Assembly (NCBI GenBank): GCA_963814275.1
Contig: CAWFCE010000002.1
Location: 1,067,263-1,131,262, forward strand
Reading direction: 5' to 3'
Length of the DNA stretch: 64,000 nucleotides
DNA from: Candidatus Parcubacteria bacterium
Lineage (GTDB): Bacteria; Patescibacteriota; Patescibacteriia; Patescibacteriales; UBA12075
The position numbers and the translations under genes were made by a program. The notes under the pieces are model-generated. The model was given only the letters and a program-made list of their open reading frames with translations. It was not told where the DNA came from and ran no database searches. The first letter of the stretch is position 1. Each line of letters starts with the position of its first letter. Shown one piece after another: positions 35,763 through 37,046 of the stretch.

Positions 35763-37046
35763 ATGCATACGATACGTGAAATATGCGATATGTTTACTTC
35801 TCTTTTGGGTAATGATATTCGAGCTAGAGGAAGAATAACGTCAGTGCGCCGTATGAAAAAATCGGTTTTTGTCGATTTGACATTGAAAGCTTCCAAAATT
35901 CAATGTTGTTTTGAACATGATTCTGGTTACCGGCCAGAGAATGGAGATTTGGTTGAAGTTTTTGGTAAGTGTTTTTATACCAACACAAAAGAGCCCACGA
36001 TAGACGTTTTTGAAGTGTCTGTTGTAAACAACTGGAAGGCTGACGTTGAGTATGGAGATGTGTTAAGGAGTAAAGTTAACTTGCTTCAAGCGTTTTCGCC
36101 TGAAGCCTACCAAAGATTCCATTATCCCCAAGCAGTTAGGAATTTTATACGGCAATTTTTGACTTCAAGAAGTTATTTCGAAGTACAAACTCCAATCCTT
36201 GGGAGGAACTATAATGGCGGAAAATCCTTTCCAGTCACAAGCTCTTACCTTGGCAAGAGTATTGGATTTAATAGAACGACTATGGAAGACCGCATGCAGG
36301 CAATTATCGGAATCGGTTATAAAAGAATATTCCAAATAGGGAGTATCTTTCGTAGCGATAAGGAGCATACCTTCCTTGAAGGTTACGAGGCATTTCTTAG
36401 CTGGGAGGATGGCAAAGAGCTTATAAAGGAGATGCTCGCTTACGTTGTCGAGAAACTTGTTCAAGAGGGAATCGGAGACGTTGATCATACGGCGGAAGAT
36501 ATTATGAATAAACACTGGCTCGAAATAGATTTTTTTGCTGGGGCATTCGACAAATTCAAGATGGATAGCGAACTAATCTCGAGAGCTGGAGATGAAATGG
36601 TTGGGCTACTTGCGGAGAAAGGAGTATTAAAGAGCAATGTGGTATCTTTAGAAAGTATTGCAGATGAGCTCGCAAATGCCATTGCAAGTGGAACGGGGAT
36701 GCCAACTATAGTAAACGGTTTTCCGGTTTGGTCGTCGCCTCTTTATGCTCCTTGCGGGGTTGCTGAATTTTCTGTCCAGATTCAAAGAAGCAGAATGTAT
36801 CTACCCGGTTTGAAGGGTGGGTTTGAAATTGGCGTTCAAGAAAACGATTATGATAGGTTTTTGGATAGGCTGAATGGGCAAAGGGAAGTCTGGAAACTAT
36901 CCAACGAAGATATTCGTATTGCGGACTCTGATCTGGCCAAAGTTATTTCCGGAGGGTTACCTCCAATTTTCGGCTTTGGCATGAATCCAGATCGTATACT
37001 CAGGATATGGCGTAAAGACTGCGCCATAGATCCGTATAATGAGTAA
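35763..37046 (+). CDS. orphan class IIb aminoacyl-tRNA-synthetase-like paralog (Asp/Asn/Lys-RS type, OB fold plus catalytic core)
   Basis: N-terminal OB pattern IRARGRITSVRRMKKSVFVDL. Motif-1-like SYFEVQTPIL, motif-2-like FRSDKEHTFLEGYEAF, motif-3-like GGLPPIFGFGMNPDRILRIW. ATG 35763 is preceded by aaggagg. Confidence 0.7.
   Translation: MHTIREICDMFTSLLGNDIRARGRITSVRRMKKSVFVDLTLKASKIQCCFEHDSGYRPENGDLVEVFGKCFYTNTKEPTIDVFEVSVVNNWKADVEYGDVLRSKVNLLQAFSPEAYQRFHYPQAVRNFIRQFLTSRSYFEVQTPILGRNYNGGKSFPVTSSYLGKSIGFNRTTMEDRMQAIIGIGYKRIFQIGSIFRSDKEHTFLEGYEAFLSWEDGKELIKEMLAYVVEKLVQEGIGDVDHTAEDIMNKHWLEIDFFAGAFDKFKMDSELISRAGDEMVGLLAEKGVLKSNVVSLESIADELANAIASGTGMPTIVNGFPVWSSPLYAPCGVAEFSVQIQRSRMYLPGLKGGFEIGVQENDYDRFLDRLNGQREVWKLSNEDIRIADSDLAKVISGGLPPIFGFGMNPDRILRIWRKDCAIDPYNE

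Follow-up and report, generated by a model that had tools for sequence, protein, structure and literature searches.

The 64-kb stretch of contig CAWFCE010000002.1 of a Candidatus Parcubacteria bacterium analysed here (positions 1,067,263 to 1,131,262; hereafter the window) harbors, at its positions 35763-37046, a gene encoding a member of a protein family for which the name KRSL was coined in this analysis. KRSL is very likely a non-housekeeping, neofunctionalised paralog of lysyl-tRNA synthetase (LysRS), encoded within a conserved module that is recurrently tied to LysRS and lysine genes, and, judging by the residues it has retained and lost, it probably performs tRNA-linked chemistry other than ordinary protein synthesis. 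We tentatively propose, as a plausible reading that still falls short of probable, that it moves the aminoacyl group from Lys-tRNA to a small-molecule amine, as a class II analogue of the isoleucyl-tRNA synthetase (IleRS)-like protein SbzA.

An earlier note on this DNA had described a short protein of 427 amino acids translated from the ATG at position 35763, with an OB-fold-like N-terminus, three class II synthetase motifs and an altered motif 2, and these features are borne out. The open reading frame is intact and full-length, and is bounded by its own translation and transcription signals. The features of the gene and its product are as follows, with residue counts referring to the 47 family members:

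35763-37046, forward strand: KRSL gene, coding for a 427-amino acid LysRS-derived class IIb paralog; final gene of the island operon

35750-35756, forward strand: ribosome-binding site AAGGAGG, 6 nt before the KRSL ATG, read directly in the sequence

35814-36029, forward strand: N-terminal OB-fold anticodon-binding domain (residues 18-89), carrying R24, R29, F36, Q47 and E77

36348-36395, forward strand: motif 2, FRSDKEHTFLEGYEAF (residues 196-211), with R197, E201, E206 and Y208 retained, a loop of 7-8 residues deleted and position 202, which corresponds to the adenine-stacking Phe, variable

36786-36848, forward strand: remodelled active-site hairpin (residues 342-362), R-x-R...GFEIGVQEND as compared to R-F-E...EIGNGFSELND in LysRS

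36954-36995, forward strand: motif 3, GLPPIFGFGMNPDR (residues 398-411), R411 being equivalent to LysU R480 (R in 41/47 and K in 3/47 members)

37053-37080, forward strand: intrinsic-terminator-like hairpin with a 12-bp stem followed by a T-run, directly 3′ of the KRSL stop codon

The presence of a class IIb synthetase-like gene at this position is far beyond chance. The translated product matches the Pfam tRNA-synt_2 domain (residues 102-415; E-value: 6.9e-18) and, at exactly the 27-bit cut-off of the model, the OB-fold tRNA_anti-codon domain (residues 22-87; Bitscore: 27.0). Motif 1 (EVQTP) and motif 3 (GFGMNPDR) align with their LysRS counterparts, while motif 2 is 7-8 residues shorter in the alignment than that of LysRS. 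LysRS models top the NCBIfam ranking, with scores far below their cut-offs (NF001756: 99.8 bits, cut-off 468; TIGR00499: 85.5 bits, cut-off 427.6), and the models for EpmA and for the aspartyl- and asparaginyl-tRNA synthetases (AspRS and AsnRS) score much lower than those for LysRS. The best PDB sequence matches are likewise LysRS (E-value: 1e-17). An AlphaFold (AF2) model built on 31 homologues (pLDDT: 89.7) retrieved exclusively LysRS among its top 50 Foldseek matches in the PDB, with a TM of 0.80 and approximately 20% identity to E. coli LysU (1e1t), and in this model motif 2 forms a tight hairpin (strands 188-197 and 200-210).

A neighbour-joining tree incorporating the 47 KRSL proteins, 56 LysRS, four short LysRS-like proteins and the EpmA, AspRS and AsnRS of E. 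coli was computed with capped distances, which are saturated, so that the exact sister group is unreliable. In this tree all KRSL proteins form a single clade with a long stem (0.65) and 100/100 bootstrap support, with class II LysRS as its nearest relatives but without branching among bona fide LysRS, while a grouping with EpmA was recovered in 0/100 bootstraps and neither AspRS nor AsnRS is close. The phylogeny proposed in the earlier note thus places the protein in a separate clade rather than tightly within any of the bona fide LysRS, AspRS or AsnRS enzymes; genes for the latter two are absent from the 64-kb window. The view expressed there that this is unlikely to be a housekeeping synthetase is upheld by the best LysRS model score (99.8 against 468 bits), the long-branched clade and the coexistence of a canonical LysRS, with which KRSL shares only 23% identity, in the same genome. 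The four short LysRS-like proteins (P0059, P0062, P0064 and P0069; 441-453 amino acids), encoded outside the window, form a separate group and are not KRSL. They lack the N-terminal helix, their motif-2 loop is only 3-4 residues shorter (FRNESxSLxEF) and they match Pfam tRNA-synt_2 with approximately 190-200 bits.

The KRSL family is rare. A collection of 5.8 billion proteins yielded an identical protein from a 1.27-Mb contig as well as 37 homologues sharing 36-62% identity, the single annotated one among which (P0037) was labelled class II LysRS by JGI. A profile search against 1.84 billion representative proteins retrieved approximately 25 KRSL representatives, followed by a sharp score drop to ordinary LysRS levels. 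The named hosts of the 47 members are Patescibacteria (candidate phyla radiation), namely Falkowbacteria, Shapirobacteria and Saccharibacteria, together with one metagenome-assembled genome (MAG) labelled Woesearchaeota. Searches of the plasmid and viral collections gave no KRSL, being confined to ordinary LysRS or weak class II hits at 23-27% identity, and plasmid or phage carriage was rejected on these grounds, while a full-text literature search found no description of the family. Approximately 46 columns remain invariant across the 47 diverged homologues, indicating that KRSL is under purifying selection, and the protein encoded in the window carries every one of the family-invariant residues. 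The remote relatives P0049, P0052 and P0054 carry N-terminal extensions in which no Pfam domain or likeness to neighbouring genes was found.

KRSL was mapped on LysU by a joint MAFFT alignment, by profile-profile alignment (hhalign) and by means of the residue list of the human LysRS-tRNA(Lys3) cryo-EM structure (PMC11643047), the human-to-E. coli residue offsets being self-consistent. Where positions conserved in at least 90% of LysRS are taken as LysRS-invariant, 8/8 such positions are kept in the OB domain and only 22/35 in the catalytic domain. KRSL R29, F36, Q47 and E77 correspond to R136, F144, Q155 and E195 of human LysRS, which stack on and pair with the anticodon nucleotides U35/U36 (PMC11643047), and this clamp is retained in 45/47, 46/47, 47/47 and 40/47 members, respectively. 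Further LysRS-type features of the OB domain are 'GR' and T130. The residues forming the pocket for A76 are likewise present (P326: 47/47; L327: 46/47; Q373: 47/47; G153: 47/47), as are the two alpha-amine anchors E175 and E206 (LysRS E240 and E278), the dimer motif (motif 1) with its proline, G152, Y208 (Y280 in LysRS) and the arginines of motif 2 (R197; 46/47) and motif 3 (R411). Given the conservation of the anticodon-binding residues and of the A76 pocket, tRNA is probably still a ligand of KRSL.

The 7-8-residue loop of motif 2 is deleted in 47/47 members and, with it, the equivalents of human G326, D328 and H331, which function in C74/C75 binding and adenine stacking (PMC11643047). E264 (human E325), the invariant glutamate just before this loop in LysRS, falls on a variable position, and the equivalents of E264, H270 and the adenine-stacking phenylalanine F274 are deleted or variable in all 47 proteins, while N263 is replaced by serine. 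N263, E264, H270, F274 and E428 are near-invariant in the 56 LysRS but are changed or deleted family-wide in KRSL. The Mg-binding glutamates are not conserved: E414, a position which is E or Q and therefore not fully invariant in LysRS itself, has become Arg or Lys in most members (R344 here), and E421 corresponds to G352 or K351 in the window protein. By MAFFT and large-profile hhalign, N424 is further replaced by Glu or Asp (E355), F/Y426 by Gly (G357; 46/47) and E428 by Gln (Q359; 42/47), such that the clamp for the lysine side chain (F/Y426 and E428) appears to be remodelled. The register of residues 342-362 differs by method, however, with small-profile hhalign deleting the counterparts of F/Y426 and E428 and pairwise HMMER pairing E355 with E428; the register followed here is that of MAFFT and large-profile hhalign, which agree with each other and also match N430, D431, R438 and Q442. 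The active-site loops carry invariant motifs specific to KRSL (YNGGxSFPV, GFNRTTxE, WSSPLY and GxQEN), and an invariant acidic pair, E297 and D301, occupies positions at which human LysRS contacts the acceptor arm. The retention of the anticodon clamp, A76 pocket, alpha-amine anchors and two arginines, combined with the loss of the adenine stack, Mg ligands and C74/C75 loop, is what one would anticipate if the protein still accepted an aminoacyl group along with the tRNA(Lys) 3′ end while having given up LysRS-type adenylate formation.

The canonical LysRS that the earlier note had placed elsewhere in the window is present:

58843-60942, forward strand: canonical class II LysRS of 699 amino acids with a normal motif 2, FRNEGMDAEHLQDYTQMEFY, sharing 40-42% identity with E. 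coli LysS/LysU

This gene likely encodes the housekeeping enzyme, and it is a possible supplier of Lys-tRNA to KRSL. Its C-terminal extension of approximately 200 amino acids matches an HDIG metal-dependent phosphohydrolase domain (TIGR00277; Bitscore: 37; cut-off: 27.6). LysRS makes Ap4A and some HD-domain proteins hydrolyse it, and the fusion may couple the production and hydrolysis of this compound.

The genomic context, which supplies the strongest evidence on KRSL, was compared across approximately 22 distinct KRSL loci, nine of which contain a genuine LysRS gene adjacent to KRSL, eight of class II and one of class I. In the former (L003, L005, L008, L013, L016, L029, L031 and L037) the LysRS is full-length with canonical motifs and adjoins KRSL in three different arrangements; co-directional pairs are 4-43 nt apart or overlap, and are operonic in several loci. 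The divergence of KRSL correlates with that of the neighbouring LysRS (r = 0.84). The class I enzyme of L042 passes its LysRS model (TIGR00467; Bitscore: 368.7; cut-off: 147.55) and is embedded in an operon in the order methyltransferase, LysRS and AMP-binding (ANL) ligase. This operon (L042 5072-9886, reverse strand) also includes an AP_endonuc_2-type protein. Since the class I LysRS is not homologous to KRSL, and since gene order and orientation vary among the loci, the adjacency is not a relic of tandem duplication; the occurrence of LysRS of both classes near KRSL points to a functional tie with lysine or Lys-tRNA. In L003, L037, L013, L005 and L016, which derive from MAGs labelled Shapirobacteria and Saccharibacteria, the KRSL-adjacent LysRS share 62-98% identity with each other and approximately 40% with that of the window, such that either these labels are imprecise or the LysRS moves together with the cluster.

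The second recurrent association is with an ANL ligase. In the window KRSL is preceded by six genes, which encode:

29214-30703, forward strand: SSF sodium:solute symporter (Pfam SSF), split by a 1-nt frameshift near 29478-29490

30712-31674, forward strand: type I asparaginase (TIGR00519; Bitscore: 269.4; cut-off: 260.5)

31689-32330, forward strand: peptidase S51 of the PepE/cyanophycinase family (Pfam Peptidase_S51; Bitscore: 74.9)

32342-33580, forward strand: pyridoxal phosphate (PLP)-dependent class I/II aminotransferase (Pfam Aminotran_1_2)

33604-34152, forward strand: GNAT N-acetyltransferase (Pfam Acetyltransf_1), with weak NCBIfam matches to ArsN1, RimI and Sat4

34230-35615, forward strand: AMP-binding (ANL) ligase, acyl-CoA-synthetase-like (Pfam AMP-binding; Bitscore: 181), directly upstream of KRSL

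The ANL gene lies immediately 5′ of KRSL in all 17 main-clade loci for which sequence is available, often with overlapping stop and start codons, and is thus an obligate upstream partner in this clade. The remaining genes are more sporadic, with the aminotransferase present in 15 loci, the SSF importer in 11, an asparaginase-like gene in the fetched flanks of ten (that of L006 being a 154-amino acid fragment approximately 5 kb away) and the S51 peptidase in five close loci, with S51 genes also found in L008 and L042. The GNAT gene is exclusive to the window's version of the cluster among the loci examined. In L039 the module is followed by a cupin and a LysA-like diaminopimelate decarboxylase (Bitscore: 279.8; cut-off: 297.9), while an acyl-CoA thioesterase gene is located 3′ of KRSL in three loci. 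A Saccharibacteria-type subgroup combines KRSL with an ABC importer and, in L016, LysRS, and lacks the ANL ligase, aminotransferase and other partners. Remote relatives at approximately 30% identity keep the OB clamp; those of L040 and L041 occur with a DegT-type PLP aminotransferase, an ANL ligase, a methyltransferase and a hexapeptide transferase, while that of L042 adjoins an S51 peptidase among amino-sugar genes, the latter encoding a PseC-like DegT protein, a UDP-sugar dehydrogenase, a PIG-L deacetylase and a hexapeptide transferase.

The recurrently co-encoded genuine LysRS, the ever-attached adenylating ligase and the pattern of retained and lost residues are together the basis for the transferase model. 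Under this model, the genuine LysRS would make Lys-tRNA(Lys), which KRSL would bind, handing the aminoacyl moiety over to an amine that the aminotransferase and ANL partners either produce or process, with its vacated AMP site potentially serving as the acceptor site. A precedent exists in SbzA of the altemicidin/SB-203208 cluster, an IleRS-like protein encoded in the sbzA-B-C operon together with an adenylate-forming enzyme and a GNAT protein, which moves Ile from Ile-tRNA, the product of the housekeeping IleRS, to a metabolite amine, the product being an inhibitor of IleRS (PMC6331615). The same three kinds of gene are found side by side in the window, in the order GNAT, ANL and KRSL. Both proteins are synthetase-like and are encoded in accessory operons, a separate genuine synthetase existing in each case, with tRNA-binding elements being retained in KRSL. 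SbzA is, however, a class Ia protein with HIGH/KMSKS-like motifs from Streptomyces, while KRSL is assigned to class IIb by Pfam and fold, has a degraded ATP site, occurs in Patescibacteria and is encoded in clusters without carrier proteins.

Several observations weigh against the transferase model. SbzA belongs to class I, and the likeness is consequently one of analogy and not of homology. The C74/C75-binding loop of LysRS is gone, so that docking of the CCA end cannot be canonical, and the invariant acidic residues E297 and D301 lie where the acceptor arm would be located. As the side-chain pocket appears to have changed (F/Y426 to G and E428 to Q), the group transferred may not be plain lysine, although the register of residues 342-362 on which this depends varies with the alignment method. 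Some residual chemistry on nucleotides would equally be compatible with the retained arginines of motifs 2 and 3, the model names no acceptor molecule and approximately 13 of the 22 loci have no adjacent LysRS. Furthermore, the importer, asparaginase and S51 peptidase would be no less at home in an island for nutrient use than in a biosynthetic island.

KRSL may alternatively be part of a split or alternative synthetase, in which a non-canonical, long-side-chain amino acid (e.g. an N-epsilon-acylated or otherwise extended lysine) would be produced, and perhaps also activated, by the aminotransferase and ANL ligase and then attached by KRSL to tRNA(Lys) or a different U35 tRNA, be it for translation or for a downstream tRNA-dependent step. 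The retained anticodon clamp, A76 pocket, alpha-amine anchors and arginines of motifs 2 and 3 would fit this. The side-chain clamp, which is apparently enlarged and neutralised (F/Y426 to G in 46/47; E428 to Q in 42/47), and the strict translational coupling of KRSL to an adenylate-forming enzyme that could stand in for the lost ATP site are consistent with such a role. However, the A4 region of this ligase is of the acyl-CoA-synthetase type and its best solved relatives are CoA ligases rather than amino acid adenylation domains, an acyl-CoA thioesterase gene follows KRSL in three loci, the C74/C75-binding loop is missing, and the replacement of Lys throughout the proteome would probably be harmful. 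A dedicated tRNA gene was also sought and rejected, none being found in any cluster, as the tRNAs in some loci are unrelated neighbours and that in the window is the integration site. We consider this alternative unlikely. Its narrower form, a two-component synthetase in which the ANL ligase activates a lysine-derived or long-side-chain non-canonical amino acid, built with the aminotransferase, and KRSL loads tRNA(Lys), is viewed as decidedly doubtful, but would, if true, mean that in ultra-small symbiotic bacteria a mobile island alters lysine-codon delivery or provides tRNA-dependent chemistry with a novel aminoacyl-tRNA. The tRNA may alternatively be dispensable, with KRSL adenylating an amino acid and coupling it to a small-molecule or protein amine as an amide or ester ligase, and the neighbouring LysRS representing a self-resistance copy or a mere lysine-related neighbour. 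Among class II paralogs, PoxA/EpmA, AsnA and the amino acid:carrier-protein ligases provide precedents for this (PMC9437257). The loss of the CCA-binding loop, the retained arginines and alpha-amine anchors, the biosynthetic-looking context, with remote relatives among amino-sugar genes, and the mobility of the clusters, a trait of many accessory-metabolite clusters, are in keeping with it. AsnA and HisZ have no anticodon domain and EpmA lacks one in the alignment, whereas KRSL keeps 8/8 invariant OB positions, down to relatives of approximately 30% identity, together with an essentially invariant A76 pocket. Five ATP and Mg residues (E264, H270, F274, E414 and E421) are moreover deleted or not conserved, which makes self-adenylation doubtful, and we regard a tRNA-independent ligase as improbable. 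The earlier note had suggested a non-tRNA acceptor, which holds in so far as the final acceptor may be non-tRNA, but the conserved anticodon residues and A76 pocket indicate that tRNA is probably still bound; in this KRSL is probably unlike AsnA, EpmA and HisZ, which the note offered as models.

A non-catalytic sensor or scaffold similar to HisZ, SLIMP or the HisRS-like domain of Gcn2 would bind an amino acid and/or uncharged tRNA(Lys) and control or organise the ANL ligase and aminotransferase, or LysRS, thereby tying a lysine-related salvage to charging status. The obligate co-occurrence of KRSL with the ANL ligase resembles that of hisZ with hisG, degradation has affected the contacts to ATP and CCA but not the anchors for the anticodon and amino acid, LysRS of both classes and a LysA-like gene provide links to lysine supply, and synthetase paralogs that bind tRNA without charging it are known, such as SLIMP (PMC9437257). 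The active-site loops nevertheless contain many invariant residues specific to KRSL, which are more suggestive of a new, precisely built site than of relaxation, there is retention of R197, R411 and the A76 pocket, and the Saccharibacteria-type members lack the ANL ligase and aminotransferase, so that we assign such a role a low probability. Inhibitor-resistant synthetase copies are well known from antibiotic clusters (PMC9437257), and a spare or resistant LysRS that still makes Lys-tRNA(Lys) for translation, as the earlier note had also entertained, would account for the LysRS fold and LysRS-type anticodon domain. This is very unlikely given the score of the best LysRS model (99.8 bits; cut-off: 468), the 23% identity to the genome's own LysRS, the family-wide change or deletion of N263, E264, H270, F274 and E428, with ATP, Mg and CCA-end residues being deleted or not conserved throughout the family, and the presence of a normal LysRS with canonical motifs next to KRSL in eight loci. 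Although the frameshifted SSF transporter of the same island might indicate that the island is being lost and that KRSL is a decaying, functionless remnant, the gene is full-length with all family-invariant residues, has a consensus ribosome-binding site and its own terminator, and belongs to a family of 47 diverged homologues that keep approximately 46 invariant columns, which renders decay extremely improbable.

In comparison to known LysRS and LysRS-derived proteins, KRSL combines a familiar fold with an unusual set of losses. It shares with LysS/LysU the two-domain fold, the GR, R, F, Q, T and E residues of the OB domain, the motif 1 proline, the motif 2 and 3 arginines, the alpha-amine glutamates, Y280 and the A76 pocket, but is only approximately 23% identical, lacks the N-terminal helix and motif-2 loop, and is encoded in an accessory operon on a mobile island. 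EpmA (PoxA/GenX) is likewise a class II, LysRS-derived, non-translational protein with a lysine-like substrate, as is predicted for KRSL; however, it has no OB domain and a full motif-2 loop, FRNEEMGRYHNPEF, and the EpmA model TIGR00462 scores only 35.7 bits on KRSL (cut-off: 286.9). Domain content, tree position and genomic context, with neither epmB nor efp being present in the island or the conserved neighbourhood (only L005 contains efp, approximately 7 kb away), led us to reject an EpmA-like role. No AsnA model was found among the NCBIfam matches of KRSL at E ≤ 1, and KRSL has an OB domain. Cyclodipeptide synthases are also derived from synthetases, have lost the ATP motifs and use aminoacyl-tRNA substrates, but originate from class Ic (Tyr/Trp) enzymes, yield cyclodipeptides and have no anticodon-binding domain. 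HisZ, SLIMP and the HisRS-like domain of Gcn2 have partly lost their catalytic apparatus while keeping ligand or tRNA binding, as predicted for KRSL, and have an obligate partner enzyme (PMC9437257); HisZ differs in lacking the anticodon domain, and KRSL is set apart by its retained arginines and A76 pocket and by numerous new invariant residues in the active site. The mycobacterial MprF-LysRS fusion LysX provides a precedent for a dedicated LysRS activity that serves a non-translational use of Lys-tRNA (PMC9437257), but its LysRS part is a genuine synthetase fused to the transferase, the NCBIfam LysX model scores only 38 bits on KRSL and no MprF/DUF2156 domain is encoded in the KRSL clusters.

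KRSL is therefore an undescribed variant of a known phenomenon, the recruitment of synthetase paralogs to other roles, with an unusual pattern of kept and lost elements. We know of no other class II paralog that keeps the whole anticodon domain and A76 pocket while losing the ATP, Mg and CCA-loop elements, a pattern to be expected if an enzyme works with tRNA or aminoacyl-tRNA but does not form the adenylate on its own. A 2022 review of synthetase duplications lists LysU, PoxA/EpmA and LysX as the only LysRS duplicates (PMC9437257), to which KRSL would add a fourth, structurally distinct lineage. If the proposed transfer from Lys-tRNA is correct, KRSL would represent the first aminoacyl-tRNA-dependent transferase derived from a class II synthetase, a counterpart of SbzA and the cyclodipeptide synthases, and would belong to a mobile pathway that is tied to LysRS or lysine genes in many loci. 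Its hosts, the Patescibacteria, are organisms to which next to no accessory biosynthesis is ascribed. Should the product mimic lysyl-adenylate, it could act as a natural inhibitor of LysRS, an enzyme validated as a drug target. The family also represents a natural experiment in the repurposing of a synthetase active site.

The seven co-directional genes, of which KRSL is the last, make up an island of 8.6 kb that is delimited by the following features:

28378-28449: tRNA-Gln(CUG), the integration site, in the 3′ end of which the 217-nt repeats begin

28435-28832, forward strand: left att-like repeat, two tandem copies of a 217-nt unit starting in the 3′ end of tRNA-Gln

37249-37465, forward strand: right att-like repeat, 94% identical to the left unit, closing the island

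The insert is flanked by direct repeats containing the 3′ end of tRNA-Gln, as is characteristic of elements that have integrated at tRNA genes, and the G+C content is 33-39% within the island (28-38 kb) as opposed to roughly 42-55% elsewhere in the window. By these sequence features the island is horizontally acquired and mobile. No integrase or recombinase gene is present between its repeats, while the homologous clusters of L003, L010 and L037 have serine recombinases at their flanks. The two tandem copies of the 217-nt unit at the left are spaced at approximately 181 nt, and beyond the single copy at the right end a partial fourth copy is found 1.2 kb further (38451-38570), which suggests a second small inserted segment at 37.47-38.45 kb. 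An IS30-type transposase (HTH_38 and rve domains; 39038-40054, forward strand) is encoded just outside the island. A search of six island proteins with PADLOC gave no match to anti-phage defence, and this role was discarded for the island.

Among the partner enzymes, the ANL ligase has intact core motifs and an acyl-CoA-synthetase-type A4 region (THCNAHG), read by eye from the translation, and among solved structures FadD13 and oxalate/malonyl-CoA ligases come closest to it. The aminotransferase resembles AspAT, with the archaeal and Thermotoga AspAT as its closest solved structures and weak similarity to PLP enzymes acting on basic amino acids, while the GNAT protein weakly resembles acetyltransferases that detoxify amino acid analogues. 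None of these three proteins reaches a curated equivalog cut-off. The asparaginase and S51 peptidase are, by their family matches, the two Asn/Asp-releasing hydrolases of the island. The frameshift in the SSF gene is located in a T-run, where a tblastn alignment with the intact 490-amino acid homologue of L011 (80-88% identical) switches frame, and the same break occurs in the separate assembly L001; the broken gene could be a pseudogene or contain a slippage site.

The ANL and KRSL genes are separated by a gap of 100-165 nt exclusively in the closest relatives, amounting to 147 nt in the window and being alignable among them. Neither a search against Rfam at gathering thresholds, which matched tRNA alone and no T-box, lysine riboswitch or other leader, nor RNAalifold on the aligned 147-nt leader of the close relatives, which found no consensus structure, supported a regulatory RNA leader for KRSL, and this candidate was ruled out. 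The gap contains a conserved 14-nt box, TGAACnTTAACAAA, at 35706-35719, approximately 45 nt 5′ of the KRSL start, with equivalents in L002, L010, L011, L012, L023 and L025. This box may represent an operator or a region with an internal promoter, and a small hairpin is also located in the window at 35724-35740, before the KRSL ribosome-binding site. Just outside the island, at 27015-27518 on the reverse strand, a SET-domain protein is encoded (Pfam SET; E-value: 7.4e-10), and another SET gene is found near the L037 cluster.

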